A stretch of DNA of 64,000 nucleotides from a virus, in the IMG/VR virus record IMGVR_UViG_3300045988_174665; one strand, written 5' to 3'. The stretch's first letter is position 1; every line of letters begins with the position of its first letter. Made by a program: the position numbers and the translations under genes. Of the stretch, positions 11,002 to 40,979 are shown one piece after another. The notes beneath the pieces are model-generated. The model searched no databases and was not told the origin of the DNA. It worked only from the letters and a program-made list of their open reading frames with translations.

Positions 11002-12834
11002 TTAACCTCCCGAAAAGAAAATAAGTTTACGAGTACCAGAACCGTTTCCAAATCTTCTTCTACGCTTATAACTTTCTTCTTCAAGTTCCTTAATTCTCCA
11101 TAAGCCATAAGCAAATGAATAATACTTATCATCTGGAAAACGAGTATTAATTGATTCTAAAACAATGTCCATTCCTGTTCTTTTTAAGCGTAAATTAGCC
11201 ATTTCCTCAAAAAGTTTTGTTGTCATTTCGTGAGGTAAAAGTCTTTTTATACGCTGCTCAGGTTTCATTTTTTGACCAATCTTTGTTTCAAGTAAGGCAT
11301 TTTTTGCTGATTGTTCAGTAATCAAAAAACGAACCGTGCCGCCGTTTAAACGAGAATAGGCATTACCATTAATTTGAGATTTTAAACTACCGCTAGCCTT
11401 AATTCCATACAAAATTTGTGGAGCTTCTTTTGGTTGAACTTTCTTATAAGTATCATCATTATGAAAACCATATGCAGGATAAGATTCTCCGAACTCATCT
11501 ATTTGTGTTCTAATCATCTCATCTGCAAAGCCAACACCTAAGCCATTTGTATCAATAACTACTTCTTTTGGCTTAAAATCTCTAATAATTCTTTTTAATT
11601 CAATTGCTTGTTGATAGAAAGTTTTTGCCTTTATGTTTTTACCCAATACAAAAATATTAACCAAAGAACAGTAATATTTTCCACCTTGAATTTTAACTTT
11701 AAAGACACTACAAACTGTTTGGTCGTGAATTCTACCTACGTCTACTGATAATAAGTAAAATTGTGAAGTTCCTCGTCTAACAGAAAAGTGCGTTTCTGGA
11801 TTTTTTAATTTTCGATATTTTTGTAATTTATCAAAATTAAACCAAGAATCTTCTCCTCCGCCAGTCCAGACCGACATATACTCACGAGCAAAAGTCTCTT
11901 CATTATAAGAAGGTGACATTTGCAATTCTTTAATAAAAGAACGGTCTAGTAAACCGTGCATTACAGGAACTCGATAATCACAACCCCAAACAAAGGCTTC
12001 TTTAGGATTAATAATTTGCATTTCTAGTAAATCAATAAGCTTCATATAGGCATATGAAGACTTAACGCCCGCCGAAGTCATATAAAGTTGTTGTTGGTTG
12101 GGTTCATTTGGATTAACTTTTCCCAGTGCAGTTCTTCTTGAAACATTCATTAAAGGAAGGACTACTGAATTTAAAATTTCGCCATCGTGGTCACGGACCT
12201 CGTCAATGAGTCCTCCCTGACGTCTTCCTCCACGTTCCGAGTCTAAAGCACCAACTACATCAAAGATAGACTTATTACGAAAAAGTAAACTAATATAATC
12301 TTTTCCAAAAGAACCCTCCCCAATAATTTCTTTTTTAAGAAGAGGATATTTATCCCAGATTTCAAAAATTTTATCTTTAGCTATTTTCGCAGATTGATTT
12401 TTACCAGGGGCGCAAATGAATCTTTTTGTTCCGGGCAAAAAAATACATTGCAAATAAATTGCTAAAATAGAAAGAAAAGTTTTAGAAAAAGCACGACAAG
12501 CTGTAACATAATGATATCTATATCTAAAGCACGCCCGCAAGAAAATTCTTTGGTAAAAGAATAAATGGAAATTTGAATCCGATGGGGCAATGATATCAAG
12601 AAAAATATCTGGATAGGCAATAAATAAATCCATATAACGCTCAAAAAGCTCAATATGTTCTAAAAGATAACTTTCAGTTAAAATAAAACCTTTGTCAATT
12701 TCAATTCCATCTTTCTTTTCTTTTATGACCGTTTCTTCTAATTTATCTAATGTTGATTGGGAGAAAAGACTAAATTCTTCCACCGTCTTCCACCTCCGCA
12801 ACAAAGCCATCATCGTCATCAAAGACTTCATCAA
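11002..12834 (-). CDS. terL: terminase large subunit (exact start uncertain, several Met in first 10 codons)
   Basis: 610 aa. Deviant Walker A (ACRAFSKTF) and Walker B-like LIDEVRD. C-terminal nuclease-like VIDTNGLG. Lies upstream of portal. Confidence 0.8.
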   Translation of the reverse strand: MMKSLMTMMALLRRWKTVEEFSLFSQSTLDKLEETVIKEKKDGIEIDKGFILTESYLLEHIELFERYMDLFIAYPDIFLDIIAPSDSNFHLFFYQRIFLRACFRYRYHYVTACRAFSKTFLSILAIYLQCIFLPGTKRFICAPGKNQSAKIAKDKIFEIWDKYPLLKKEIIGEGSFGKDYISLLFRNKSIFDVVGALDSERGGRRQGGLIDEVRDHDGEILNSVVLPLMNVSRRTALGKVNPNEPNQQQLYMTSAGVKSSYAYMKLIDLLEMQIINPKEAFVWGCDYRVPVMHGLLDRSFIKELQMSPSYNEETFAREYMSVWTGGGEDSWFNFDKLQKYRKLKNPETHFSVRRGTSQFYLLSVDVGRIHDQTVCSVFKVKIQGGKYYCSLVNIFVLGKNIKAKTFYQQAIELKRIIRDFKPKEVVIDTNGLGVGFADEMIRTQIDEFGESYPAYGFHNDDTYKKVQPKEAPQILYGIKASGSLKSQINGNAYSRLNGGTVRFLITEQSAKNALLETKIGQKMKPEQRIKRLLPHEMTTKLFEEMANLRLKRTGMDIVLESINTRFPDDKYYSFAYGLWRIKELEEESYKRRRRFGNGSGTRKLIFFSGG

Positions 12835-16885: not shown

Positions 16886-16897
16886 TTTAGACGCAAA
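16886..16897 (+). repeat. isolated TTTAGACGCAAA half-site
   Basis: Same 12-mer as the outer arm of the tripartite elements; lies 8 nt upstream of a promoter. Confidence 0.6.
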
Positions 16898-16904
16898 GTG
16901 CATA

Positions 16905-16933
16905 TTGCACAAAAGCCTATTTTATAGTATAAT
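16905..16933 (+). promoter_or_regulatory. sigma70-type promoter
   Basis: TTGCAC-17 nt-TATAAT. Confidence 0.5.
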
Positions 16934-16939
16934 AGAGTG

Positions 16940-17175
16940 GTAAAAGGTTAGATAAAATTAAAATAAACATATTTATAATTTTATAATCTATTCTAATAAT
17001 GCAATGAATAATTATATAAAATATTAGAATATATAGAAAGAAAATAATAGATAATAAATTATATAAATATATCAATAAAATATAAATATATACCATCTTT
17101 TTATCAGTAGTTCAGGTGGCAAGGTGTGTATAAAAATAATGGCGAGGGAGGTAAAAATTACCTCTTTTTGTTTTT
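16940..17175 (+). ncRNA. candidate ~240-nt AT-rich non-coding transcript
   Basis: Bounded by the 16905 promoter and the 17148 terminator; no ORF longer than about 19 codons. Confidence 0.3.
17148..17175 (+). terminator. intrinsic terminator
   Basis: GAGGTAA-AAA-TTACCTC hairpin followed by TTTTTGTTTTTG. Confidence 0.55.
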
Positions 17176-17290
17176 GTTTTCTTATTTTTATTTTTTAAAA
17201 AGTTCAAAAAAGCTGCGTTTCGGTTTTGAATGAGCTGCGTCGCCGCTGCAAAAAATTTTTTAAATTTTTAAAATTTTTTTTAAAAAACTA

Positions 17291-17319
17291 TTGACTTTTT
17301 AAAAAAGTTATGTTATAAT
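17291..17319 (+). promoter_or_regulatory. early promoter
   Basis: TTGACT-17-TATAAT preceded by an A/T UP-like tract. Confidence 0.65.
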
Positions 17320-17351
17320 ATAGTTACAAAATAAAGAAAGGAATTTTAAAA

Positions 17352-17561
17352 ATGAAAGCTACAAAAAAAATTACAATGACAAAAAAAGAAAAGAACGCTA
17401 TTATTAACGGCTTAAATCTACTTATTGAATACGGCTATGCCTATGAAGAGATTTTCGGGTGTAATTTGACTGATGATTATGCGGTATGTTTACCAGATGA
17501 AATGTTAGAGGCTTTTAAAGCCTCTTTAGATAGTTCTTATATTAATATTATTAAAGACTAA
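17352..17561 (+). CDS. small acidic hypothetical protein
   Basis: ORF track; AAAGAAAGGA RBS. Confidence 0.55.
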   Translation: MKATKKITMTKKEKNAIINGLNLLIEYGYAYEEIFGCNLTDDYAVCLPDEMLEAFKASLDSSYINIIKD

Positions 17562-17602
17562 AATAAAATATTCATAAGATAAAGAAAAGAGGTGAAAAAC
17601 AA

Positions 17603-17812
17603 ATGGCTACAATTGTTATTTCAGTTTTTGCAACTTGGTTTATAATTAGTATTTTAATTGCAATAGGTGATACTTTTTTAAAACAAGATGTATTGTGGGA
17701 CGATTGGTTTATTATAATTGTATGTTTCCCATATATTATCATATCCATACCGTTTGAATTGATTGTGAAAACAATAAAAAAATTAAAAAAGAAAAGAGGT
17801 AAAAAACAATGA
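17603..17812 (+). CDS. small two-TM membrane protein (family with 18235..18483)
   Basis: Shared W(D/E)DW(F/Y)..IV.FPY motif with the paralog. Confidence 0.55.
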   Translation: MATIVISVFATWFIISILIAIGDTFLKQDVLWDDWFIIIVCFPYIIISIPFELIVKTIKKLKKKRGKKQ

Positions 17813-18030
17813 AAATAGCTACCGTTACGGCTCTTCACGGGCGAGACTCGGACGAATATTCAAAAATTGAAAATGCTATTAATACTCTAACAGATTTTCA
17901 GGAGTTTTTAAAAAATAATAGCGTTGATATGAGCAAAATTGATGAAAATACACTTTGTGTTTTCCGTAGGCAATTACAAAGATTATTCTCTCCAAAAGGT
18001 TTGGTTATTGATTGGGTAGATAATGATTGA
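17809..18030 (+). CDS. small hypothetical protein
   Basis: ORF track; ATGA overlap with the upstream gene. Confidence 0.5.
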   Translation: MKIATVTALHGRDSDEYSKIENAINTLTDFQEFLKNNSVDMSKIDENTLCVFRRQLQRLFSPKGLVIDWVDND

Positions 18031-18040
18031 TATAATAAGA

Positions 18041-18070
18041 AAATAAACGGTTTATATAACCGTTTATTTT
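18041..18070 (+). terminator. intrinsic terminator
   Basis: AAATAAACGG-loop-CCGTTTATTT hairpin followed by a T-run. Confidence 0.6.
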
Positions 18071-18080
18071 TTAACTAAAA

Positions 18081-18157
18081 TTGCGTCTAAACTTTGGATT
18101 GTTCTTTAGACGACAACCGTCTAAAACTTAAAAACTAAAATCATTTTAGACGCAAAA
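18081..18157. repeat. tripartite TTTAGACG element 1
   Basis: TTGCGTCTAAAC ... TTTAGACGACAACCGTCTAAA ... TTTAGACGCAAAA. Confidence 0.85.
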
Positions 18158-18173
18158 TTAATTATAAATTCTA

Positions 18174-18202
18174 TTGACAAATTCAAATTTATAGTGTATA
18201 AT
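18174..18202 (+). promoter_or_regulatory. early promoter
   Basis: TTGACA-17-TATAAT with an extended TG. Confidence 0.7.
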
Positions 18203-18234
18203 ATATTCATAAGATAAGGAAAGAGGTGAAAGCA

Positions 18235-18483
18235 ATGACAATCGCAGTAATGATAATTTTAACAAGTTTGATAACTTGGCTTCTTCTTGACATAATCCTT
18301 GCTATTTATGACTATAATAAAAATCAATTTTATATGTGGGAAGATTGGTACACTTTTATAGTATTTTTCCCTTATTTGATTTTTATTTGCCCATTTGGTA
18401 TGGCAATTTGTACAATAAAGAAAATTCTTCGTAACTACAGAAAAGAAAGAAAATATAATTCAAAACATAGAAAGGATAGATAA
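18235..18483 (+). CDS. small two-TM membrane protein
   Basis: ATG at 18235 after a GAAAGAGG RBS; paralog of 17603..17812. Confidence 0.55.
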   Translation: MTIAVMIILTSLITWLLLDIILAIYDYNKNQFYMWEDWYTFIVFFPYLIFICPFGMAICTIKKILRNYRKERKYNSKHRKDR

Positions 18484-18485
18484 TA

Positions 18486-18625
18486 ATGACCGCTGGAGCA
18501 TTTGTACTTGTAATATATTTTGGGTTCTTATTTCTTTTTACCCTCGCAAATCGTTAATTTGTGCAATAAAGAAAACCATTCATAAGTATAAGAAAAATAA
18601 TTCAAAACATAGGAAGGATTGATAA
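18486..18625 (+). pseudogene. truncated, frameshifted third copy of the membrane-protein gene
   Basis: 23-codon TM stub followed out of frame by LICAIKKTIHKYKKNNSKHRKD. This matches the tail AICTIKKILRNYRKERKYNSKHRKDR of 18235..18483. Confidence 0.55.
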
Positions 18626-18627
18626 TA

Positions 18628-18849
18628 ATGAAAGCAACTTATATTAGAGAATTAGTAATCACCACAGAAGAAATCGAAACAATTACAAGAGGTCTTGAAA
18701 AACTTGAAGAATTTATAGATAGTGCTAACGAGTTGGAACTTGACCTTTTTGACATTTACGAAATGGATACTATTTCAAGCTTACGCAACAGGGCGGAAGA
18801 TAACGACTTATTTCTTGATGATAATATTACAATTAAAGAAACGGAGTAA
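18628..18849 (+). CDS. small acidic hypothetical protein
   Basis: ATG at 18628 after an AGGAAGGA RBS. Confidence 0.5.
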   Translation: MKATYIRELVITTEEIETITRGLEKLEEFIDSANELELDLFDIYEMDTISSLRNRAEDNDLFLDDNITIKETE

Positions 18850-18866
18850 TCCGTTTCTTTTTTTTA
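18836..18866 (+). terminator. intrinsic terminator
   Basis: GAAACGG-AGTAAT-CCGTTTC hairpin followed by a T-run. Confidence 0.6.
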
Positions 18867-18873
18867 CCTTGTT

Positions 18874-18951
18874 TTGCGTCTAAACTTTTAATTTACTTCT
18901 TAGACGGCAACCGTCTAAAGTTATTTAATCAAAATCAATTTAGACGCAAAA
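18874..18951. repeat. tripartite TTTAGACG element 2
   Basis: TTGCGTCTAAAC ... TTAGACGGCAACCGTCTAAA ... TTTAGACGCAAAA. Confidence 0.85.
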
Positions 18952-18988
18952 TCACTAAAAATTTTTTAAAATTTTTTTTAAAAAACTA

Positions 18989-19017
18989 TTGACAAATTCA
19001 ATTTTATAATGTATAAT
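18989..19017 (+). promoter_or_regulatory. early promoter
   Basis: TTGACA-17-TATAAT. Confidence 0.7.
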
Positions 19018-19049
19018 TAGTATATCAAATAAAGAAAGAGGTTTTCACT

Positions 19050-19502
19050 ATGACAACTATCGCAACAATTTTAACTACCTTAATTATATGTGCCGTGACA
19101 GGACTTTTACCTTTAATAATAGTCAAAACTTATTTGGCTATTGAAAGTCATTTCATCAAGAAAGATATTTTAAATAATAAGTTCCTTTATCTGGCTTATT
19201 TAAATAAAGCCGAGGAAAGGGAAAAATACGGTAGAAGAGCTTGGTACATTGGGAAAAGAAAAAAAGCTTTAAAAAATAAGGTTGATAACTATTACAATGA
19301 GATTCATTATTTACCAAAATATATGGTATCTTGTAAAGAAACAGAAATCGAACAGACTAAAATTTATATTAGTGAATGGGAAACTATCCGTCAACGCAAC
19401 TGGGAAAAATTAGATAAAATTGATACAGAATTAAATAAATGGAAAAAATTCCATTCATTAAAAACTTATGACGAGGAAAAAATCAGGCAGATACTTGCCT
19501 GA
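19050..19502 (+). CDS. N-terminally membrane-anchored hypothetical protein
   Basis: ORF track; TM segment followed by a charged helical region. Confidence 0.55.
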   Translation: MTTIATILTTLIICAVTGLLPLIIVKTYLAIESHFIKKDILNNKFLYLAYLNKAEEREKYGRRAWYIGKRKKALKNKVDNYYNEIHYLPKYMVSCKETEIEQTKIYISEWETIRQRNWEKLDKIDTELNKWKKFHSLKTYDEEKIRQILA

Positions 19503-19510
19503 TTTTTTTT
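19481..19510 (+). terminator. intrinsic terminator
   Basis: AATCAGGCA-loop-TGCCTGATT hairpin followed by T8. Confidence 0.65.
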
Positions 19511-19518
19511 ATTGTAAA

Positions 19519-19594
19519 TTGCGTCTAAACTTTAAGAAATTAAGACTTAGACGGCAACCGTCTAAAATAAAGAATTGAAAGTTTAGACGCAAAA
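19519..19594. repeat. tripartite TTTAGACG element 3
   Basis: TTGCGTCTAAAC ... TTAGACGGCAACCGTCTAAA ... GTTTAGACGCAAAA. Confidence 0.85.
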
Positions 19595-19632
19595 TTACTC
19601 AAAAAATTTTTAAAAAATTTTTTAAAAAACTA

Positions 19633-19661
19633 TTGACTTTTAAAAGTTTTTGCTATATAAT
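19633..19661 (+). promoter_or_regulatory. orphan early promoter with RBS-like leader but no ORF
   Basis: TTGACT-17-TATAAT followed by ATATACATAAGATAAAGAAAGGAAAG with no start codon or ORF. Confidence 0.55.
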
Positions 19662-19739
19662 ATATACATAAGATAAAGAAAGGAAAGACAAAAACTTAAA
19701 AAACTTTTAAAAAAATTTTTAAAAAATTTTAAAAAACTA

Positions 19740-19768
19740 TTGACAAATAAAAAATTCTATGATATAAT
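19740..19768 (+). promoter_or_regulatory. early promoter
   Basis: TTGACA-17-TATAAT. Confidence 0.65.
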
Positions 19769-19845
19769 AAGTACAGAAAGTTAAGAGATTAACTTTTAAA
19801 TAAAAATAGGGTTGCGACCTAACGCTAAAAAAGAAAGGATATATT

Positions 19846-20235
19846 ATGACAAACAGAGAATTTTTGAACAGCGTAATTAACAACAACATTGACACTGCCG
19901 TTATTGATTTTGCCGAAAATCAGCTTGCAAAGCTTGATGAACGCAATAAAAAGCGTTCAAGCACAATGAACGCAAGACAGAAAGAGAACGAAAGCATCAA
20001 GGCTGAAATTATTGATTTTATCAAGGAAAACGGTCAGAGTGTTGTCGCAAGTGAAATCGGCGAACAGTTCGGCTTTTCTACTCAGAAAGCAAGTGCATTG
20101 CTCAGACAGCTTGCTGAAAGTGGTACGCTTGCCGTTGACACCGTAAAAATTCCAAAGAAAGGAAAGGTAAAGGCTTATAGCCTTGCGGGCAATGAAATGA
20201 CTGCGGACACCGAAAACGATACCGAAAATGAATAA
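19846..20235 (+). CDS. winged-helix DNA-binding protein (paralog of 27382..27741)
   Basis: Shared ...REF.N.......DFA.NQ...LD.RN.KR ... STQKASALLRQL...G.L......IPKKGK.K.Y. Confidence 0.6.
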   Translation: MTNREFLNSVINNNIDTAVIDFAENQLAKLDERNKKRSSTMNARQKENESIKAEIIDFIKENGQSVVASEIGEQFGFSTQKASALLRQLAESGTLAVDTVKIPKKGKVKAYSLAGNEMTADTENDTENE

Positions 20236-20237
20236 GT

Positions 20238-20271
20238 AAAAATAAGGTGGGCAACAGTCCACCTTATTTTT
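20238..20271 (+). terminator. intrinsic terminator
   Basis: AATAAGGTGG-loop-CCACCTTATT hairpin followed by TTT. Confidence 0.65.
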
Positions 20272-20278
20272 ACCCAAA

Positions 20279-20362
20279 TTTGCGTCTAAACTATTAGTTA
20301 AAAAATTTAGACGACAACCGTCTAAAGGTTATTTTATCGAAAAATAAACTTTAGACGCAAAA
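20279..20362. repeat. tripartite TTTAGACG element 4
   Basis: TTGCGTCTAAAC ... TTTAGACGACAACCGTCTAAA ... TTTAGACGCAAAA. Confidence 0.85.
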
Positions 20363-20378
20363 TTAACTTAAAAAACTA

Positions 20379-20407
20379 TTGATTTTTTAAAAAATTTATT
20401 GTATAAT
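20379..20407 (+). promoter_or_regulatory. early promoter
   Basis: TTGATT-17-TATAAT. Confidence 0.6.
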
Positions 20408-20442
20408 TATTATAGAAAATAAAAGAAAGGAGTTTATCAAAA

Positions 20443-20880
20443 ATGAATATTATGGTAAAATCACAAATTGAACTTGACAAAATTCCACTCGATACAAAAG
20501 CACAAATTTCTATTAAATTTGGAACTATTAAAAATCCCGCTGTTGTAAAAAATAAATATTTTTACAATATTTTAGTATATGGTAAAAGCGTGGTAAAAGT
20601 ATATGGCAATAGCAATATTGTAGCATTTGATAATAGTACTATTCTAACATATGATAATAGTATTGTTGAGGCATTTGGCAATAGTACTGTTATAGCTTGT
20701 AACAATAGTTTTGTTAGAACATATGATAATAGCACTATTACAGCATATGATAATAGTATTGTTGAAGCATTTGATAATAGTACAGTTGAAGCATTTGACA
20801 ATAGTACTATTATAGCTTGTCATAATAGTTTTGTTAAAACATATGATAATAGTACTATTAAAGTATATAATAATGCTTAA
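20443..20880 (+). CDS. decapeptide-repeat (DNSxVxAx) beta-solenoid-like protein
   Basis: About 10 tandem 10-aa repeats. The N-terminus is homologous to 54036..55004. Confidence 0.6.
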   Translation: MNIMVKSQIELDKIPLDTKAQISIKFGTIKNPAVVKNKYFYNILVYGKSVVKVYGNSNIVAFDNSTILTYDNSIVEAFGNSTVIACNNSFVRTYDNSTITAYDNSIVEAFDNSTVEAFDNSTIIACHNSFVKTYDNSTIKVYNNA

Positions 20881-20928
20881 AAAAATATTAAAAAAGTAAT
20901 ATAATTTTAATAAATAAATTAATTTTAA

Positions 20929-20963
20929 AAATAAACGATTTATCTAAAATCGTTTATTTTTTT
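20929..20963 (+). terminator. intrinsic terminator
   Basis: ATAAACGATT-loop-AATCGTTTAT hairpin followed by a T-run. Confidence 0.6.
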
Positions 20964-20971
20964 AACTTAAA

Positions 20972-21050
20972 TTGCGTCTAAACTATTAGTTAAGAATTTA
21001 GACGCTAACCGTCTAAAGCCATTTAATTGAGATAGAGTTTAGACGCAAAA
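20972..21050. repeat. tripartite TTTAGACG element 5
   Basis: TTGCGTCTAAAC ... TTTAGACGCTAACCGTCTAAA ... GTTTAGACGCAAAA. Confidence 0.85.
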
Positions 21051-21089
21051 TTTGCCCTAAAAATTTTTTAAAAATTTTTTAAAAAGCTA

Positions 21090-21118
21090 TTGACAAAATC
21101 AATTTTATAATGTATAAT
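21090..21118 (+). promoter_or_regulatory. orphan early promoter with RBS-like leader but no ORF
   Basis: TTGACA-17-TATAAT followed by ATATACATAAGATAAAGAAAGGAAAAAC with no ORF. Confidence 0.55.
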
Positions 21119-21171
21119 ATATACATAAGATAAAGAAAGGAAAAACAAGAAACTTAAAAAATTAAAAACTA

Positions 21172-21199
21172 TTGATAAATAAAAAATCTATAATATAAT
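21172..21199 (+). promoter_or_regulatory. early promoter
   Basis: TTGATA-16-TATAAT. Confidence 0.5.
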
Positions 21200-21220
21200 A
21201 AATACAAAGGTGGAATTACA

Positions 21221-21514
21221 ATGAAAAAATTTGAGATTGAAACTATGCAAATAAACGAAACTATATATACAGAAAGTGTATTTGTGGGTACAGGTAGAGA
21301 AATATTAAATCTATACAAAAATTTAATGAAGCACACCGAAAGAGTGTGTAATAAATGGGAAAACAATAACGGACTCCCATATGTTGATATAAGAGGAATC
21401 CAAGGTATAGAATTGTATCTCACACAAGAATATTCCATAAACTGGACACCTCGTGTTCGGATTATGGGAAAGAATGAAACGGCAAAATTCCTATTAGAGA
21501 GATGTGAAATGTAG
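21221..21514 (+). CDS. hypothetical protein
   Basis: ORF track; AAAGGTGG RBS. Confidence 0.5.
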   Translation: MKKFEIETMQINETIYTESVFVGTGREILNLYKNLMKHTERVCNKWENNNGLPYVDIRGIQGIELYLTQEYSINWTPRVRIMGKNETAKFLLERCEM

Positions 21515-21558
21515 GAATCAGCCTATTCTTTCAAAAAATAAAATAACAAAAATATAAT

Positions 21559-21591
21559 CAAAGGGTGGGTAATAACTCACCTTTTATTTTT
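21559..21591 (+). terminator. intrinsic terminator
   Basis: AAAGGGTG...CACCTTT hairpin followed by a T-run. Confidence 0.55.
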
Positions 21592-21600
21592 TATTATAAT

Positions 21601-21680
21601 TTGCGTCTAAACTATTAATTAGACAAAGTTTAGACGATAGCCGTCTAAAGATTATTTTATTAAAACAACTTTAGACGAAA
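21601..21680. repeat. tripartite TTTAGACG element 6 (degenerate last arm)
   Basis: TTGCGTCTAAAC ... TTTAGACGATAGCCGTCTAAA ... TTTAGACGAAAAA. Confidence 0.8.
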
Positions 21681-21688
21681 AAAAAGTC

Positions 21689-21717
21689 TTGACTTTTAAA
21701 AGAAAATATATTATAAT
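21689..21717 (+). promoter_or_regulatory. early promoter
   Basis: TTGACT-17-TATAAT. Confidence 0.65.
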
Positions 21718-21739
21718 ATAGTTACAGAATAAAGAAAGG

Positions 21740-22186
21740 GTGCTTATTGTGACAGATGAAAGTTTAATGTTATTAGTATATTTTGGTGTTACCGCTTTTA
21801 TACTTTTTGGAGTGCTATTTGAATTACTATATAGCAAATTAAAATATATTAAAAAAATTAAAAAACAGCCACATAAATTCACGCAATTGTTGTATTATTA
21901 TAATACAATACAAAAATACACTAAAATGTGTATAGATTCACATAATATACTAATTAAAAAAATAACAGAACTAAATAATATATATAAAGCATTATTAACA
22001 GCAAGTAAAATAGAAGATATTGATAAAGTGACTTTATCAAAAAAAGTAGAAATTCAAAAACTTGTCATAAAAGACAACCTTTTGGAAACCTTGTTAAAAG
22101 AACAGGAAAATGCTTTTGAAGAATTAAAAAAAGAATTAAAAGTTGATAATTGTGATGAAAAACTAATTAAAAGGCTTACTAAATAA
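21740..22186 (+). CDS. membrane-anchored coiled-coil protein (start uncertain; a GTG at 21749 is possible)
   Basis: ORF track; N-terminal TM segment. Confidence 0.5.
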   Translation: MLIVTDESLMLLVYFGVTAFILFGVLFELLYSKLKYIKKIKKQPHKFTQLLYYYNTIQKYTKMCIDSHNILIKKITELNNIYKALLTASKIEDIDKVTLSKKVEIQKLVIKDNLLETLLKEQENAFEELKKELKVDNCDEKLIKRLTK

Positions 22187-22200
22187 GCCTTTTATTTTTT
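22170..22200 (+). terminator. intrinsic terminator
   Basis: AAAGGCTTA-CTAAA-TAAGCCTTT hairpin followed by a T-run. Confidence 0.65.
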
Positions 22201-22208
22201 GAAGAAAA

Positions 22209-22283
22209 GCGTCTAAACTATTATAACCTTTAGACGGCAACCGTCTAAATCAGCTTTAAAATAAAAAAGTTTAGACGCAAAAA
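22209..22283. repeat. tripartite TTTAGACG element 7
   Basis: GCGTCTAAAC ... TTTAGACGGCAACCGTCTAAA ... GTTTAGACGCAAAAA. Confidence 0.85.
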
Positions 22284-22288
22284 TTATC

Positions 22289-22317
22289 TTGACTTTTTTA
22301 AAAAAATATATTATAAT
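22289..22317 (+). promoter_or_regulatory. early promoter
   Basis: TTGACT-17-TATAAT. Confidence 0.65.
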
Positions 22318-22353
22318 TACTATAGAAAATAAAAGAAAAGAGGAAATTCAAAA

Positions 22354-22782
22354 ATGATTTATTTCGATATGGACGGAACAATCGCAGACTTTTATGGTGT
22401 TAATGGTTGGCTTGATTGCTTAAACAATGAGGACACAATGCCTTATAAAAGGGCTAAACCGTTAATAAAAATGAATGTTCTTGCAAGGGTATTAAACAAT
22501 TTACAGAAAAGAGGTTTTGAAATCGGTATAATTTCTTGGACTGCTAAAGACAGTTCTGAAAGCTATCATAAAGCTGTCGCAAGAGAAAAAGAACAATGGT
22601 TGCATACTCATTTGAAAAGTGTAAAATTTAATGAAATTAATATTCTTAAATATGGTGTTCCAAAAAGCACCGTAGCAACCGAAAACGATATTCTTTTTGA
22701 TGACGACAAAAGAGTTAGAAAAGAATTTTGCGGGCGGGCATTTGATGAAACAAAAATATTTGAAATCTTAAAGGCTCTTTAA
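22354..22782 (+). CDS. HAD-superfamily 5'(3')-deoxyribonucleotidase-like protein
   Basis: FDMDGTIADF (DxDGT motif I) and LFDDD motif. Confidence 0.65.
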   Translation: MIYFDMDGTIADFYGVNGWLDCLNNEDTMPYKRAKPLIKMNVLARVLNNLQKRGFEIGIISWTAKDSSESYHKAVAREKEQWLHTHLKSVKFNEINILKYGVPKSTVATENDILFDDDKRVRKEFCGRAFDETKIFEILKAL

Positions 22783-22797
22783 AGAGCCTTTAATTTT
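22768..22797 (+). terminator. intrinsic terminator
   Basis: TTAAAGGCTCTTTAAAGAGCCTTTAA palindrome followed by TTTT. Confidence 0.6.
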
Positions 22798-22805
22798 GCT
22801 ATAAT

Positions 22806-22877
22806 TTGCGTCTAAACTGCCGCTGCGACTTAGACGCTAACCGTCTAAAATAAAGAATTAAAAGTTTAGACGCAAAA
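22806..22877. repeat. tripartite TTTAGACG element 8
   Basis: TTGCGTCTAAAC ... TTAGACGCTAACCGTCTAAA ... GTTTAGACGCAAAA. Confidence 0.85.
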
Positions 22878-22914
22878 TTCATTTTTAAAATTTTAAAAAA
22901 TTTTCAAAAAACTA

Positions 22915-22943
22915 TTGACTTTTTAAAGTTTTTACTATATAAT
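22915..22943 (+). promoter_or_regulatory. early promoter
   Basis: TTGACT-17-TATAAT. Confidence 0.65.
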
Positions 22944-22974
22944 ATATACATAAGATAAAGAAAGGAAAATAACA

Positions 22975-23208
22975 ATGAAAAAGAAAAAGATATTTTGGGA
23001 ACTTATGGGGTATATAACCTTAACAGGTTTAATTATCGGACAAATTACTGTAGGCTACTGGTATTTATTTGCACAGCTTATTTATTTATTTTGTAATGCA
23101 GTTAATGTGCTTAGGGATTTCTCAGAGCATATGCCATATTCTTATAGAGTAAAGGATATTTGTTTTACTGCTATTACAATTGGTTTAATTTGTCTTTGGA
23201 TTTTTTAA
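22975..23208 (+). CDS. small multi-TM membrane protein
   Basis: ORF track; hydrophobic throughout. Confidence 0.5.
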   Translation: MKKKKIFWELMGYITLTGLIIGQITVGYWYLFAQLIYLFCNAVNVLRDFSEHMPYSYRVKDICFTAITIGLICLWIF

Positions 23209-23222
23209 AGGGGAGAAAATAA

Positions 23223-23642
23223 ATGTTAAATAATATTTTATATATCGCTATTGCCGCACTTATTACAATAATTATGGTATGGATTATTGAAATTTTTATT
23301 TATATTTCTAAAGTAAAAAAGAATAAAAATATTTTCAAAAGAATTGTAAGGTTGGAAAGAAGAATTTCAATTTACAACAAAAAATTAAAAAAATTGCATA
23401 CAAGTTATATTGCAGTTAAAGAGTTTGAAAAAATTACAGCCAATAGCTATTATAATAAAAAGTCCTCTTTCGCTGAATATAGTAGAGATATGGACAAAAC
23501 ATTAGATATTATGGAATTGATACAAATTACTATAAAAACTATTACAATAAGAAAACAAGAGGCAGAGAGAGAACGAAAAAGATTACAAGGCATTATAAAG
23601 GTTGATAAATTAAGATTTAAAATAATTGCAAGGTTCATTTGA
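23223..23642 (+). CDS. membrane-anchored coiled-coil protein
   Basis: ORF track; GGGGAG RBS. Confidence 0.5.
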   Translation: MLNNILYIAIAALITIIMVWIIEIFIYISKVKKNKNIFKRIVRLERRISIYNKKLKKLHTSYIAVKEFEKITANSYYNKKSSFAEYSRDMDKTLDIMELIQITIKTITIRKQEAERERKRLQGIIKVDKLRFKIIARFI

Positions 23643-23668
23643 GCCTTGCTTTTTATTTTCGTCAAAAA

Positions 23669-23742
23669 GCGTCTAAATCTTTAAGTTTCAGGGTTTAGAC
23701 GCTAACCGTCTAAATTTTATTTTAAGATTTTAGACGCAAAAA
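23669..23742. repeat. tripartite TTTAGACG element 9
   Basis: GCGTCTAAAT ... TTTAGACGCTAACCGTCTAAA ... TTTAGACGCAAAAA. An extra half-site lies at 23793-23804. Confidence 0.85.
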
Positions 23743-23840
23743 TTTGCTTTCTTTATAAAATTTTATTATAATTATCTTAAAGAAAAAGAAATTTTAGACG
23801 CAAATTTTTTAGAAATTCTAAAATTATTTTTAAAAAACTA

Positions 23841-23869
23841 TTGACAAACTAAAATTTCTAATGTATAAT
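23841..23869 (+). promoter_or_regulatory. early promoter
   Basis: TTGACA-17-TATAAT; overlaps the spurious N-terminal extension in the ORF track. Confidence 0.65.
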
Positions 23870-23902
23870 ATAATTGAAATTAAAAGAAAGGTGGCTACTT
23901 TT

Positions 23903-24262
23903 ATGGCAACACGCAAACAATTGAGAGAAGAAATCAAAAAGCATTATATGGAAAAATTCATTGACTTTTTGGATAAAAGTGGTGAAGATGTTTTGATTGT
24001 AGGTTCAAACAAGCTGGCTTTCCCTGTTACTGACAGCGAAAACAATGAAGATTTTATCGAGCTTACAATTAAAATTCCGATAGGTGCTAATAAAGGCACT
24101 GAACCATATGATGGATATGCAATGGCGGAAGACTACGAAATCCATCAGCGTGAAATGGCTGAAAAGAAAGAGAAAGCTAAGAAACTCAAAGAAGAAAAAA
24201 TCAAAAGAGATAAGTTGTACAGAGAAAACAAAAAAAGACAGAAAGAAGGAAGAGCGGTTTAA
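23903..24262 (+). CDS. hypothetical protein, paralog of 25394..25756
   Basis: Shared ...VGSN..AFP..D.E.NEDFI...K.P.GANKGTEPYDGYAMAEDYE.H... plus a K/E-rich tail. Confidence 0.55.
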   Translation: MATRKQLREEIKKHYMEKFIDFLDKSGEDVLIVGSNKLAFPVTDSENNEDFIELTIKIPIGANKGTEPYDGYAMAEDYEIHQREMAEKKEKAKKLKEEKIKRDKLYRENKKRQKEGRAV

Positions 24263-24276
24263 CCGCTCTTTTTTTA
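24249..24276 (+). terminator. intrinsic terminator
   Basis: AGAGCGG-TTTAA-CCGCTCT hairpin followed by T6. Confidence 0.65.
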
Positions 24277-24290
24277 AAACCTTTTTAAAT

Positions 24291-24368
24291 TTGCGTCTAA
24301 ACTATTAATTAGACAAAGTTTAGACGGTTGCCGTCTAAAGGTTAAAGATTAGAACTTTAGACGCAAAA
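24291..24368. repeat. tripartite TTTAGACG element 10
   Basis: TTGCGTCTAAAC ... TTTAGACGGTTGCCGTCTAAA ... TTTAGACGCAAAA. Confidence 0.85.
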
Positions 24369-24408
24369 TTTGCCTTAAAAAAATTTTTAAAAAACTTTTA
24401 AAAAACTA

Positions 24409-24437
24409 TTGACAAAATCAATTTTATAGTGTATAAT
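24409..24437 (+). promoter_or_regulatory. early promoter
   Basis: TTGACA-17-TATAAT. Confidence 0.7.
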
Positions 24438-24469
24438 AAGTACATAAATTAAAGAAAGGGTGTTCAAAA

Positions 24470-25147
24470 ATGAACGAGATAAAAATTGATAAACGAAAAA
24501 ATTATTATATGGTGTTTGATACGGAAACATCAAATTCACTTGATGACCCGATTATGTATGACTTGGGCGGTGCTATCATTGATAAAAAAGGTCAAGTATA
24601 TGAAACATTTTCTTTTGTAATATGGGATACTTTCTGTAATATGCGAGAGCTGATGAAAACTGCTTATTATTACGAAAAAGTACCGCAATACTGGGACGAA
24701 ATCAAAAGCGGTCAGCGTAAAATCGTATCACTTTTTACTGCAAAAAAATATTTTTATGACTTATGCAAAAAGTATAATGTAACGGCTATTATGGCACATA
24801 ACGCAAGGTTTGATTATAAGTCAACTAATGGTACTTTACGCTACTTGACAAAATCAAAATACCGCTATTTTTTGCCGTATGGCATACCACTATGGGACAC
24901 TTTAAGAATGGCAAAAAGTACGGTGTGCAAACAAAAGTCATATATAAAGTGGTGCAATAAATACGGTTATGTACAAAAAAACGGTCAGGTCAGGGCAACG
25001 GCTGAAATTTTATACCGTTATATGGTAGGTAATAACAATTATACAGAGTGCCACACTGGACTTGAAGATGTGTTAATTGAAAAAGAAATTTTTGTGTGGT
25101 GTATGCGACAGCACAAAAAAATGAATAAAAATTGTTTTAAGAAATAA
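24470..25147 (+). CDS. DEDDh (DnaQ-like) 3'-5' exonuclease
   Basis: Exo I FDTETS, Exo II AHNARFD, Exo III H.GLEDV. Confidence 0.75.
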   Translation: MNEIKIDKRKNYYMVFDTETSNSLDDPIMYDLGGAIIDKKGQVYETFSFVIWDTFCNMRELMKTAYYYEKVPQYWDEIKSGQRKIVSLFTAKKYFYDLCKKYNVTAIMAHNARFDYKSTNGTLRYLTKSKYRYFLPYGIPLWDTLRMAKSTVCKQKSYIKWCNKYGYVQKNGQVRATAEILYRYMVGNNNYTECHTGLEDVLIEKEIFVWCMRQHKKMNKNCFKK

Positions 25148-25170
25148 GGGCAATCGCCCTTATTTTTTTA
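25144..25170 (+). terminator. intrinsic terminator
   Basis: AAGGGC-AATC-GCCCTT hairpin followed by T7. Confidence 0.65.
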
Positions 25171-25210
25171 CTTTAATACTTTAACACTTTAAAGCATTAA
25201 AATCTCAAAT

Positions 25211-25291
25211 TCCGTCTAAACCGCAACGCCTAAGTTGAATTTTAGACGACAACCGTCTAAGTTTTTAACTGCTCAAAGTTTAGACGCAAAA
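25211..25291. repeat. tripartite TTTAGACG element 11
   Basis: TCCGTCTAAAC ... TTTAGACGACAACCGTCTAA ... GTTTAGACGCAAAA. Confidence 0.85.
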
Positions 25292-25332
25292 CTCCTTTTA
25301 AAAAATTTTTTAAAAAAACTTTTAAAAAACTA

Positions 25333-25361
25333 TTGACAAAATAGGCTTTATAGTATATAAT
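25333..25361 (+). promoter_or_regulatory. early promoter
   Basis: TTGACA-17-TATAAT. Confidence 0.7.
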
Positions 25362-25393
25362 ATATACATAAGATAAAGAGAGGAGTTAATCTA

Positions 25394-25756
25394 ATGAAAG
25401 TTTCAAGAAAGGTATTGCGTGACAAAAAGCGTAATGAATATGTCGAATTACTAACCGAGTTATTAAAACCCCGTGAAGATGTTTTGCGAGTCGGCAGTAA
25501 TGAGATTGCCTTTCCGATTGTTGATGACGAGGGCAACGAGGATTTTATTGTAATCACCGTCAAAGTACCGACTGGAGCAAATAAGGGAACAGAACCCTAT
25601 GACGGCTATGCAATGGCGGAGGACTATGAAATGCACCTCAAAGAAAAAGCCGAGAAAAAAGCAAAAGCCGAAAAAGCAAAGGCTGAAAAAATTGCCCGTG
25701 ATAAGGCATATCGAGAGGCAAAAAAGAAGCAAAAAGAAAAAAGAGTAGAGCAGTAA
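25394..25756 (+). CDS. hypothetical protein, paralog of 23903..24262
   Basis: See 23903..24262. Confidence 0.55.
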   Translation: MKVSRKVLRDKKRNEYVELLTELLKPREDVLRVGSNEIAFPIVDDEGNEDFIVITVKVPTGANKGTEPYDGYAMAEDYEMHLKEKAEKKAKAEKAKAEKIARDKAYREAKKKQKEKRVEQ

Positions 25757-25770
25757 TGCTCTACTTTTTT
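25743..25770 (+). terminator. intrinsic terminator
   Basis: AGTAGAGCA-GTAA-TGCTCTACT hairpin followed by T6. Confidence 0.65.
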
Positions 25771-25811
25771 AGCCTATTACTTTAGTGCTTTAAAGCGTTG
25801 AAGTCTAAAAC

Positions 25812-25898
25812 CCGTCTAAACTGCCGTAACGATAAAGATTAAAGTTTAGACGACAACCGTCTAAAGTTAACCCATATTGAAAGAGTTTAGACGCAAAA
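25812..25898. repeat. tripartite TTTAGACG element 12
   Basis: CCGTCTAAAC ... GTTTAGACGACAACCGTCTAAA ... GTTTAGACGCAAAA. Confidence 0.85.
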
Positions 25899-25928
25899 TT
25901 TATTTTAAAAAAAATTTTCTAAAAAGAC

Positions 25929-25957
25929 TTGACAAAATTTTCATTCTATGGTATAAT
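25929..25957 (+). promoter_or_regulatory. early promoter
   Basis: TTGACA-17-TATAAT. Confidence 0.7.
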
Positions 25958-25992
25958 TTATAAAGAATTAAAGAAAGGCGGTTTGATAACCA

Positions 25993-26364
25993 ATGCAACA
26001 AATTTATACAAGTAAATACGGCTCTATTTTTTCACGCACTAAAATTCCGAAAAAAGAGGGCGACTATGTTTATTTTATTCAAATCGGAACAACAAACGAA
26101 CGGCTTTTCAAAGTTGGCACAACAAATAATGTACTGCGGAGAATGAAAGAACATAACAAATACTATAAAAAAGATATTTATATTTTGTGGGTATCGCCCT
26201 GTTACTCAAAATATACCACTTTAAGGGTAGAGGATAACACAAAAAAAATATGGTCAACATTAACGGGATTTACCTATAAAAGAAATGACCGTTTTATAAT
26301 AAGTCCTGTTATAACCAAAGTACAAATAAAAGTCAGAAAAATTTATGAGATTGCACTTGAATAA
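25993..26364 (+). CDS. GIY-YIG / T5orf172-like domain protein
   Basis: YVYFIQIG ... FKVGTTNNVLRRMKEH resembles the GIY...YIG...R..E core. Confidence 0.45.
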   Translation: MQQIYTSKYGSIFSRTKIPKKEGDYVYFIQIGTTNERLFKVGTTNNVLRRMKEHNKYYKKDIYILWVSPCYSKYTTLRVEDNTKKIWSTLTGFTYKRNDRFIISPVITKVQIKVRKIYEIALE

Positions 26365-26380
26365 AGTGCAATCTTTTTTT
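26348..26380 (+). terminator. intrinsic terminator
   Basis: GATTGCACTT-GAATA-AAGTGCAATC hairpin followed by T7. Confidence 0.65.
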
Positions 26381-26388
26381 ATTAATAG

Positions 26389-26500
26389 TTTAGACGGGTT
26401 TTTAAGTTTAGACGCAAAGATGTTTAGACGGGTGCCGTCTAAACTCGTCAAAATTTAAGGGGTGTCAAAATTCTTCTCTTGTCAATTTTTAGACGCAAAA
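26389..26500. repeat. TTTAGACG element 13 (rearranged: two extra direct half-sites)
   Basis: TTTAGACGG at 26389, TTTAGACGCAAA at 26407, TTTAGACGGGTGCCGTCTAAA at 26423-26443, TTTAGACGCAAAA at 26488. Confidence 0.8.
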
Positions 26501-27068
26501 TTTTTTATTTCAAATTCCCAGCTCTGTCAAATTTTAAGTTAAAATAAGCTGCGTTCAAATTTTCTTTATAATCACTGCCGCTGCAAATTTTTTTAATTGA
26601 AAAAAAGCTACGATTAAGACAAATTTTTTCTTCTTTAAAATTTCAGCAGGGAACTCTTTTTTTAGAGAAGTTGCTTTCATTTTTAACTTAAGAAAAAAAC
26701 GCAAATTTTTTTGAAGGTCAAATTAATTTTAAAGTCAAATTTCAGCTAGCGGCCCTAAGCTTTCTCTTCGATTAAGTCTAAATCCTTCCTCAGTTAGAAC
26801 TCTAAAAATTTTTTAGGAGAAAAGGAAAAGAAAAAGATAACCAAATTAGCGTCAAATTTACGCTAAATTGACTATCTAAACTAAATTAATTATACTCTTT
26901 ACTTTATTTATAAAGTTAAAGCCAAATTAGCGTTAACTTTAAATTAAGATTAGATTATTTTTAAAGACTCAGCGGCCACAGTCAAATTCTTAAAGAAATC
27001 AACTTTTCAATATCGGAAAGTTTAGTCAACTTTTCTAAAGCGTCAAACTTCTTATCGTGTCAAATTTT
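26447..27068 (+). repeat. iteron-like array of GTCAAAWTT motifs (putative replication origin)
   Basis: GTCAA(A/T/C)WTT at about 26447, 26464, 26481, 26526, 26718, 26743, 26851, 26981, 27025, 27042 and 27058, plus relaxed nCAAATT copies. Nearly all are in the same orientation and no ORF is present. Confidence 0.5.
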
Positions 27069-27182
27069 AAGCCCGCAGCGGCAACTAATTTTAACTTTAA
27101 TCTTAATTTGAAAGAAAAGAAAATTTGACTTGGCGGCTTCACCTTTAAATTAAATTAATTCTTAAATTTTAGAAATTAAATT

Positions 27183-38901: not shown

Positions 38902-38915
38902 TTCTCTTTCTCTCC

Positions 38916-39734: not shown

Positions 39735-39766
39735 TCTTTTCTCGCCTTTCTTTATTTTCTATATAT

Positions 39767-39795
39767 ATTATATAAAAAATTTTTTAAAAAAACAA
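39767..39795 (-). promoter_or_regulatory. sigma70-type promoter
   Basis: Minus sense TTGTTT-17-TATAAT. Confidence 0.5.
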
Positions 39796-39798
39796 GTT

Positions 39799-40051
39799 TT
39801 AAAAAATTACCTGATATGAAACACCATAATTAATAATTGAACAAGATAAATCAATTTTATTTTTAAAAGCTATCTTAAATACCTGACATATAGAAGGAGG
39901 GAATAAGGAAAACTCTGGTGAATACTGAATATAGACCTTAAAAAATTTCAAAAATTTTCTGCTGTTTTTTAGGAGTGACTTTAAAGCAATCACCACCAAC
40001 CTCTTGTGTGAATATGTTTTTCTTTAAAAAAATATAATCTCCTATCTTCAT
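39799..40051 (-). pseudogene. small gene interrupted by a 1-nt frameshift in a T6 run
   Basis: MKIGDYIFLKKNIFTQEVGGDCFKVTPKKQQKIFEIF | KVYIQYSPEF...YQVIF. The frames join at plus-strand A6 39940-39945. ATGA overlap with the upstream gene. Confidence 0.4.
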
Positions 40052-40920: not shown

Positions 40921-40949
40921 TTTTTCGCCCCTTTTTATTTTCTATATAT

Positions 40950-40978
40950 ATTATATAAAAAATTTTTTAAAAAAGCAA
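40950..40978 (-). promoter_or_regulatory. sigma70-type promoter
   Basis: Minus sense TTGCTT-17-TATAAT. Confidence 0.55.
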
Positions 40979-40979
40979 A

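Follow-up and report, generated by a model that had tools for sequence, protein, structure and literature searches.

A phased octamer array between the early gene cassettes of an uncultured phage, and its possible roles as operator and cassette joint

The octamer array and its elements

The DNA considered here is a stretch of 64,000 nucleotides from the IMG/VR virus record IMGVR_UViG_3300045988_174665, which we call the window, and our subject is the array of inverted-repeat elements that lies between its early gene cassettes. The elements are built from an octamer found in two orientations, TTTAGACG and CGTCTAAA, with 51 exact matches on both strands of the window compared with 2.03 +/- 1.47 expected from dinucleotide-preserving shuffles (the largest count in any shuffle being 7). 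All 51 copies lie within 16886-26495, and one-mismatch variants outside this interval occur at background density, 0.98 per kb. The array reported in a preliminary description of this DNA, which gave about 50 copies, is therefore real. It forms the sole rightward-transcribed block of the window and is flanked by a leftward block on each side.

The copies fall into 12 regular elements of four half-sites, one rearranged terminal cluster and one lone half-site (Table 1). In a regular element (written <><>) the order is CGTCTAAA - spacer - TTTAGACG-N5-CGTCTAAA - spacer - TTTAGACG, the central gap being 5 nt in every element (3 nt if the ninth pair is counted) and not the variable 3-5 nt first described. 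Measured from first to last octamer the regular elements span 64-81 bp, in place of the 72-112 bp first given, and the window spacers are 11-24 nt on the left and 14-23 nt on the right instead of 8-22 and 12-27 nt; over 56 elements from five genomes the ranges are 8-24 and 8-23 nt. Variation at the ninth pair had been described correctly, with G-C in 4, A.C in 5 and C.C in 3 of the 12 elements. The outer arms, TTTGCGTCTAAAC and GTTTAGACGCAAA, are complementary as claimed, but the full 13 nt is not general: in about half of the copies pairing fails at the 13th position and in the flanks. In the five-genome elements octamer positions 2-8 are altered at 5 of 1568 positions, and the spacers are unalignable.

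The isolated half-site at 16886 and the rearranged thirteenth element, both noted in the preliminary description, are there. The arrays of two close relatives, L166 and L168, likewise begin with a lone '>', and those of distant clade members end in a homologous cluster, '>>><>><', of 5-7 half-sites. The '<><>>' pattern of E9 recurs in L005, L164 and L166; the orphan right arm after E9 looks like the scar of a gene-less cassette. Behind the promoter that follows the lone half-site lie some 230 nt of very AT-rich DNA lacking any open reading frame (16906-17170), with a terminator at 17144-17168; the transcript may be a small RNA or a leader, and 16906-17170 has no Rfam family match.

Every element is followed by a TTGACA-N17-TATAAT promoter matching the consensus at 11-12 of 12 positions, except for the promoter at 20379 after E4 (10 of 12), and A/T tracts lie upstream of these promoters. 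Terminator-like hairpins number 28 in the region compared with 3.6 expected; a scan places one before 10 of the 13 elements, and three more were found by eye, so the claimed order of terminator, element and promoter holds. The hairpin with its T-run stands apart, 60-130 bp before the promoter, and does not overlap the -35 or -10 hexamer, and each cassette has its own promoter and terminator. The element-to-promoter distance, earlier given as 15-50 bp, is nearly right: the right arm actually lies 11-46 bp from the -35 hexamer. The claim that an element stands at every early cassette needs one correction, as the promoter of the first cassette (17291) has no element upstream. The only other promoters without an octamer element are that of a leftward sigma-like operon at 16741 (-) and the promoter-like sites at 27183 and 27275 before the gene for G', a winged-helix paralog.

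Table 1. Coordinates of the array elements and of other features of the window
Feature	Coordinates	Strand	Remarks
Portal	9493-10998		
Terminase (TerL)	11002-12834		
Sigma-like protein, 447 aa	14077-15420	-	PHROG match only
Lone right-arm-type half-site TTTAGACGCAAAG	16886-16898	+	12 bp upstream of first rightward promoter
E1 (<><>), 69 bp	18084-18152		right arm 21 bp from -35 (18174)
Early promoter after E1, TTGACA-17-TATAAT	18174-18202	+	consensus scan
E2 (<><>), central left half CTTAGACG	18877-18946		right arm 42 bp from -35 (18989)
E3 (<><>), before winged-helix cassette	19522-19589		right arm 43 bp from -35 (19633)
Winged-helix protein G, 129 aa	19846-20235	+	in cassette bearing the putative operator; candidate operator binder
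E4 (<><>)	20283-20357		right arm 21 bp from -35 (20379)
E5 (<><>)	20975-21045		right arm 44 bp from -35 (21090)
E6 (<><>)	21604-21677		right arm 11 bp from -35 (21689)
E7 (<><>)	22210-22277		right arm 11 bp from -35 (22289)
E8 (<><>)	22809-22872		right arm 42 bp from -35 (22915)
E9 (<><>) with orphan right arm 23793-23800	23670-23800		orphan arm behind remnant promoter/5' untranslated region; -35 at 23841
Protein N paralogs, 120-aa family	23903-24262 and 25394-25756		
E10 (<><>)	24294-24363		right arm 45 bp from -35 (24409)
E11 (<><>)	25213-25286		-35 at 25333
E12 (<><>)	25813-25893		-35 at 25929
Array-terminal cluster (>>><>) with degenerate CGTCAAAA	26389-26495		
Non-coding repeat stretch, word NGTCAAAT	26446-27130		about 12 NGTCAAA(T/A), 10 (+) and 2 (-); adjoins array
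Winged-helix paralog G', 119 aa	27382-27741	+	promoter-like sites 27183, 27275, without adjoining octamer; candidate
AAA_33/PNK-like kinase	37975-38901	-	
RlaP-like nucleotidyltransferase	40048-40920	-	
RNA ligase	41001-42194	-	
Metallophosphoesterase	44482-45336	-	

Clade-wide distribution and helical phasing

A scan of IMG/VR with TTTAGACGTNNNACGTCTAAA returned 64 stretches from about 45 contigs of up to 139 kb, many of them with 5-13 copies. These contigs encode TerL and sigma-like proteins 57-75% and 40-49% identical to those of the window, and they have in common with it winged-helix, NT5C, N and exonuclease-like early genes; from these shared relatives of window proteins we conclude that the palindrome-bearing contigs form one clade. 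Its members are ~100-kb phages, probably with Clostridia as hosts. G+C content is about 30% in the window and ranges over 32-49% in the clade. The usual clade unit is a single 21-bp palindrome, TTTAGACG-N5-CGTCTAAA, between terminator and promoter, and the palindrome, first taken for part of a phage-specific operator array, is thus common to the whole clade. The form with four half-sites is restricted to the window and its close relatives L005/L006, L164, L166 and L168, and is a derived variant of that group. L027 is intermediate, with the palindrome and a promoter-side arm (TTAGACGTCAAAA) in most units and a left arm in three only.

Among 185,579 bacterial species genomes, octamer arrays were found solely on short contigs carrying the same phage genes, and the octamer is therefore not a common word of host chromosomes, the case in which the preliminary description would have had to be abandoned. 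The array-bearing contigs in bacterial bins are assigned to Clostridia, Eubacteriales, Acutalibacteraceae and a few others. Singletons in the bacterial genomes come from unrelated taxa and share no context, and we rejected them as a host regulon on that ground.

Spacing relative to the promoter was tabulated for 585 non-identical palindromes from 69 loci, taking the best promoter within 110 bp, which 429 of them had. The gap from palindrome to -35 hexamer is quantised, being 7-8 bp in 224 of the 429 cases, 17-18 bp in 81, 27-28 bp in 34, 38-39 bp in 11 and 49-50 bp in 11, with a Rayleigh R of 0.83 at a period of 10.25-10.5 bp (0.72 without the first peak). At the 7-8 bp gap the palindrome spans about -44 to -64, and the longer gaps hold A-tract or UP-like sequence. 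For the window lineage 56-58 elements from five genomes were tabulated, and 52 tripartite elements were used for phasing. In these the right arm alone is phased, at 11, 20-22, 30-33 and 40-46 bp from the -35 (R 0.59-0.65, with 0 of 5000 jittered sets as high), and the central palindrome and left arm are unphased (R about 0.1). Because of the shared ancestry of elements and loci the counts are not independent, and we treat the phasing statistics as descriptive.

The quantised distance means that site and promoter keep a constant helical relation, and phasing of this kind points to a bound protein that either contacts RNA polymerase or takes the place of an UP element. It is predicted by neither a recombination site nor an RNA element, and the whole-turn distances match those by which a class I or p4-like upstream regulator is recognised.

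The layout is found with other words as well. The distant relative L171 (456-4500) has a different palindrome, GTAGTAGTCTG-N3-CAGACTACTAC, in the same order of terminator, palindrome and promoter, with gaps to the -35, judged by eye, of about 6-7, 18 and 28 bp. L170 (260-10300) keeps this order too, with TCTCACTTnTGTGAGA pairs around GGGCCGGCCC, an arrangement that is an independent 'tripartite' elaboration. Since both keep the position with other words, the position rule is older than the word.

Cassette exchange, candidate binding proteins and neighbouring genes

Cassette content was compared in the window and four relatives. L005, the sole relative compared outside the array, has structural DNA ~93% identical to that of the window, and the winged-helix proteins of L164, L166 and L168 are 87-99% identical to the window's. 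With cassettes denoted by letters, the orders are BCD/CE/F/G/H/I/J/K/LM/N/O/N'/Q in the window, B/CD/F/R/E/G/J/K/L/N/O/Q in L005, B/B/CD/F/CE/R/G/X/J/K/LM/N/O/N'/Q in L164, B/B/BCD/F/F/CE/G/X/J/K/LM... in L166 and BCD/F/CE/R/E/G/X/a/K/LM/N/Q in L168. All of the differences among the five genomes, whether gain, loss, duplication or reordering, are bounded by elements. L005, which lacks the N' cassette, has a hybrid element that corresponds to window E11 up to the right arm and to window E12 from there on; it also lacks H and I, and the element at that place has the terminator of E4 and the promoter of E6, its inner spacers coming from yet another source. The same left spacer is paired with unrelated right spacers, and the reverse, both within and between genomes: the elements at 21604 and 24294 share the spacer CTATTAATTAGACAAAG, those at 21604 and at 11314 of L166 share GATTATTTTATTAAAACAAC, and the right spacer is also shared in just 33% of the element pairs with a common left spacer. 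The suggestion that the elements act as a recombination module is upheld by these differences between close relatives and by the breakpoints inside elements. The crossover words, 13-21 bp long, could fit simple recombination over short homology, template switching at the palindromes or a process helped by a protein; among about 40 window proteins scanned there was no integrase, no tyrosine or serine recombinase and no other recombinase.

Two places in the array hold empty cassettes, in which the promoter and its conserved 5' untranslated region (5'UTR) are repeated in tandem without a gene (19633-19768, with copies at 19633 and 19740, and 21090-21199, with copies at 21090 and 21172), and at 23729-23800 there is a remnant promoter with an orphan right arm (at 23793). 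These gene-less copies and the orphan arm look like deletion scars of cassette recombination.

Most cassette products are small proteins whose function is not recognisable. The recognisable ones are two winged-helix paralogs, an NT5C nucleotidase, a DEDD-like exonuclease-like protein, a T5orf172 protein and the very conserved 120-aa protein N, present in 2 copies. Cassette H (20443-20880), found in the window only among the five genomes compared, encodes a 145-aa protein built of (Y/F)DNSTI(x)A repeats that is probably a beta-helix or solenoid.

The winged-helix family, with 681 homologs, is present in all these phages and is the only recognisable sequence-specific DNA binder that they share. 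Its structural model (predicted local distance difference test, pLDDT, 81.7) consists of two N-terminal helices and a canonical winged helix, its structural neighbours are generic winged-helix regulators, and conservation among 40 aligned homologs is highest in the recognition helix and the wing. The N family has 2760 homologs, the best matches being 60-74% identical, and is more conserved than the winged-helix family and than the clade terminase (57-75%); its confident model (pLDDT 87.5) shows a helix, a three-stranded sheet and a basic, Lys-rich helix of 49 residues. We considered N as the binder and rejected it, the model having no PDB fold match, family match or DNA-binding signature.

The non-coding repeat stretch that adjoins the array lies just upstream of G'. 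It holds 7 of the 10 window matches to GTCAAATT, and L017 and L169, both distant relatives, likewise have a run of NGTCAAA after their last palindrome. This stretch may be an iteron origin or a second operator.

The wider setting is that of a phage with no close relative among deposited phages, as megablast of the array against INPHARED gave no match. The portal is 24-32% identical to proteins of gut-virome contigs, of phAss-1 and of large Bacillus and Lactococcus siphoviruses, and portal and TerL have their matches, at 24-32% identity, in siphovirus-type phages of gut, Bacillus and Lactococcus, with no T4-type phage among them. The nearest named relative, phAss-1, has a portal 29% identical, and the phAss-1 paper mentions neither promoters nor palindromes; a literature search for the octamer returned only unrelated primer and sequence matches. 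No sign of lysogeny was found in the window.

The sigma-like protein is syntenic and conserved throughout the clade. Its PHROG match (phrog_5767) covers the C-terminal 160 residues only, and beyond this 'sigma factor' assignment it has no Pfam, NCBIfam or PDB sequence match. The promoter of its gene, 16741-16713 (-), matches the consensus at 12 of 12 positions and is leftward, without an octamer element. The window also encodes 16 tRNAs in an array (45289-53090) that contains a full-length ROOL RNA (RF03087, 301.6 bits) at 45379-45976 (-) and a skipping-rope RNA (RF02924, 44.3 bits) at 47185-47251 (-). Next to it is an RNA-repair-type gene set (37975-45336, minus strand), and the juxtaposition suggests a tRNA-repair countermeasure.

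Interpretation and comparison with known systems

The preliminary description proposed an operator array, a recombination module or both, and overall this is partly supported, by the phased sites on the one hand and the cassette breakpoints inside elements on the other. With moderate confidence, we take the octamers to be half-sites of an operator for a sequence-specific, probably dimeric DNA-binding protein at early promoters of the host sigma-A type, the elements being at the same time the joints of cassette recombination. The ancestral design would have been one 21-bp palindrome placed on a fixed helix face between the terminator of an early cassette and the next promoter. The bound protein would contact RNA polymerase, at the C-terminal domain of the alpha subunit (alpha-CTD) or at sigma region 4, or would fill the UP-element position, and as the regulator accumulates early transcription would be shut down, whether as feedback or as an early-to-middle switch. 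We infer shut-off rather than activation because the promoters are near-consensus and because early cassettes, including that of G, carry the site; activation is conceivable instead. In the window lineage the promoter-proximal right arm (TTTAGACGCAAAA) occupies the phased position, and the central palindrome and left arm, close behind the terminator of the preceding cassette, might speculatively act as an insulator or roadblock or offer extra docking. The shared words, terminator, UP-like tract, promoter and 5'UTR are the sole homology between otherwise unrelated cassettes, and the comparison of genomes shows that recombination at these junctions deletes, duplicates, reorders and imports cassettes in the manner of the promoter-early stem-loop (PeSL) cassettes of T4-type phages. 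A stronger version, in which one phage protein both controls the early promoters from phased upstream sites and pairs the inverted arms for precise excision and insertion of cassettes that bring their own promoter and terminator, seems to us quite unlikely; if true, a virulent phage clade would possess its own integron-like exchange of cassettes, with no classical integrase involved.

Several points weigh against an operator read by a phage regulator. A near-invariant 8-mer over so deep a clade is unusual for operator-regulator pairs, and no binder has been pinned down among the phage proteins examined. Under an identical operator the recognition helices of the winged-helix family differ widely (STQKASALLRQL, ITPGQVTAACKPI, LTTVKASSLLRPL, STSKASSMCRQM and others), and those of L170 (STQKASALLVQL) and L171 (TTAKASSMLRQL), almost unaltered, fall within that range despite the other palindromes of these phages. 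As the helices do not track operator type, the co-variation test lends no support to the idea that specificity is set by the winged helix. Phasing among kin phages overstates independence, and the phasing could partly reflect inserted A-tract or UP units of ~10 bp. Upstream phased sites are more typical of activators, so the sign that we have given to the regulation may be wrong, and the operator reading does not account for the central palindrome and left arm of the tripartite form. The winged-helix paralogs at 19846 and 27382, singled out earlier as proteins to try, are real, but their part as binders is somewhat weakened by the lack of co-variation, and the winged helix is a possible and distinctly tentative candidate.

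The same junctions might instead be a recombination module of the PeSL kind and nothing else, their similarity kept up by concerted evolution through gene conversion or repeated recombination, so that they serve as portable homology for shuffling cassettes, and the octamers bound by no dedicated protein. The breakpoints in elements wherever cassettes have been gained, lost, duplicated or reordered, the reassortment of modules across each conserved word and the gene-less scars all agree with this, and there is documented precedent (PMC2839356, PMC4122927). We nevertheless think it fairly unlikely: concerted evolution within genomes cannot hold an 8-mer constant over a clade with 32-49% G+C and 57-75% TerL identity in which the surrounding sequence diverges, and neither the palindromic form nor the 10-bp quantisation of the -35 distance is accounted for. 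A dedicated recombinase acting on integron-like sites would explain the four half-sites per element with their outer and inner inverted pairs, the inverted arms of 12-13 bp that bracket each cassette and crossovers in words (13-21 bp) that are short for ordinary homologous recombination, and there is a T5orf172/GIY-YIG-like gene at the array end. That gene occurs in only 2 of 64 clade loci, the scan of about 40 window proteins brought up neither a tyrosine nor a serine recombinase, the simple palindrome stands alone in most of the clade and the -35 phasing is not accounted for, all of which makes such sites very unlikely. The analogy with attC sites drawn in the preliminary description fails as well. 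Like attC sites the elements are imperfect inverted repeats with four boxes, an outer and an inner pair, between gene cassettes, and the arm words GTCTAAAC/GTTTAGAC resemble RYYYAAC/GTTRRRY; however, the core of 8 bp is one base longer than the 7 bp of attC, the inner loop is fixed at 5 nt and the outer-to-inner distance varies (8-24 nt), which is the reverse of attC geometry, the cassettes have their own promoters and terminators where integron cassettes are promoterless and served by a common promoter, Pc, and no attI was found, nor any integrase among the window proteins scanned.

That the palindrome is the operator of a host-encoded factor, tying early expression to the state of the host, has its own attractions. 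No phage early protein comes near the word in conservation, the search for a phage binder came back empty-handed, and phi29 and Nf carry boxes for host Spo0A at early promoters (PMC2731898); the half-site CGTCTAA shares 5 of 7 positions with the 0A box TGTCGAA, and the nearby NGTCAAA repeats share up to 6 of 7. We rejected the half-site itself as a Spo0A box, a 5/7 match that is never the consensus in the elements; the two consensus boxes of the window are both inside genes. A host factor remains unlikely in our view, for the bacterial species genomes show nothing resembling a regulon, with arrays on phage-type contigs only, and related phages use other palindromes at the same position, which looks like a co-evolving phage-encoded pair. 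Least probable of all, indeed highly improbable, is that the elements are a structured RNA or a cruciform, with the nested fold serving as an attenuator, an antisense terminator or a site of processing. There is complementarity of up to 13 nt between the outer arms, an inner hairpin of 8-9 bp is possible, 89.6% of cells are paired in the nested fold over 46 distinct arm-and-palindrome sequences, and some central palindromes score as terminator-like on the minus strand. In the same 46 sequences, however, the covariation score is 0.025 compared with 0.027 in shuffles and two-sided changes are confined to 2 cells; about half of the copies lack pairing at the ninth position and in the outer flanks, the changes being one-sided. 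The same word stands in both stems, which points to read-out of sequence and not to pairing; the elements, lying downstream of terminators and upstream of promoters, are for this reason mostly untranscribed; and Rfam has no family match in 16.8-27.4 kb. With no covariation, and with outer arms absent from most of the clade, the choice between two hairpins and a nested fold offered in the preliminary description lacks support.

The closest known relatives of these junctions in behaviour are the PeSL cassettes of T4-type phages (Arbiol et al. 2010, PMC2839356; Comeau et al. 2014, PMC4122927). Both have a terminator and a strong sigma-70-like early promoter with an AT-rich upstream tract, both recur in a hyperplastic region whose small early genes are mostly ORFans, and in both the motif bounds indels and replacements between close relatives, here in five genomes. 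The analogy holds as regards behaviour at cassette junctions, in an unrelated lineage: the window phage belongs to a siphovirus-like gut lineage whose portal and TerL are unrelated to those of T4. The window terminator is separate from the promoter, whereas the PeSL stem-loop usually overlaps or lies inside it (PMC2839356), and the window adds a near-invariant 8-bp word, as a palindrome or four half-sites phased to the -35, which PeSLs are not described as having.

The conserved inverted repeats (CIRs) of phiC31 and the C1 operators of P1 are multi-operator arrays of phage repressors, and the present array resembles this class in having dozens of copies of a short conserved word, intergenic and at promoters or the ends of transcription units, and, in the tripartite form, one half-site of single orientation beside each promoter. 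Another example is the stoperators of Cluster A mycobacteriophages (PMC9283540, PMC6550527); these are genome-wide, asymmetric and dependent on orientation, whereas the sites here lie in one 9.6-kb array of the 64-kb window, and the basic site here is a symmetric palindrome, with only the derived right arm in constant orientation. The palindrome also differs from multi-operator arrays in standing upstream of the -35 at phased distances, and not over the promoter or inside transcription units.

In phi29, p4 acts via the alpha-CTD. As in the reading that we favour, phi29 places a regulator upstream of sigma-A promoters on a defined helical face, and its upstream-bound protein switches early promoters off, with repression or activation depending on promoter strength; the upstream regulator sites and the host Spo0A sites stand at early and late promoters (PMC2731898). 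There is a handful of sites at one control region in phi29 and one per cassette here, the site sequences are unrelated, and no p4 homolog was recognised in the window. Cluster O mycobacteriophages have more than 30 copies per genome of 17-bp dyad-symmetric repeats of unproven function (PMC4351075), which are likewise many copies of a palindrome conserved among related phages; those repeats are dispersed genome-wide, have another sequence and host, and are reported with neither promoter phasing nor a role at cassette junctions. The arms recall the terminal inverted repeats of miniature inverted-repeat transposable elements (MITEs) or repetitive extragenic palindromes (REPs), but all copies lie at one junction type in one array, none elsewhere in the window, and L027 provides a stepwise intermediate.

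Multi-operator arrays and PeSL-like cassette junctions are thus kinds already known, met here in an uncharacterised and widespread clade; what is new is the strict face-of-helix rule, the near-invariant word across the clade, the lineage-specific elaboration to four half-sites and the coincidence of putative operator and recombination joint. The operator reading gives a grammar of early transcription, terminator-operator-promoter, for a large, wholly uncultured clade of ~100-kb gut and rumen phages, and this grammar predicts one regulator site per early gene, a strict helix-face rule and lineage-specific operator words. It would extend to phages of Gram-positive hosts the PeSL idea that regulatory junctions are the joints by which arrays of 'ORFan' genes are built, here with a discrete and nearly invariant word in the joint. 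With this word as a guide, early regions and host-takeover genes could be located in phage contigs from metagenomes and the regulator could be isolated, and the compact, insulated promoter cassettes may be of use in the engineering of Clostridia.

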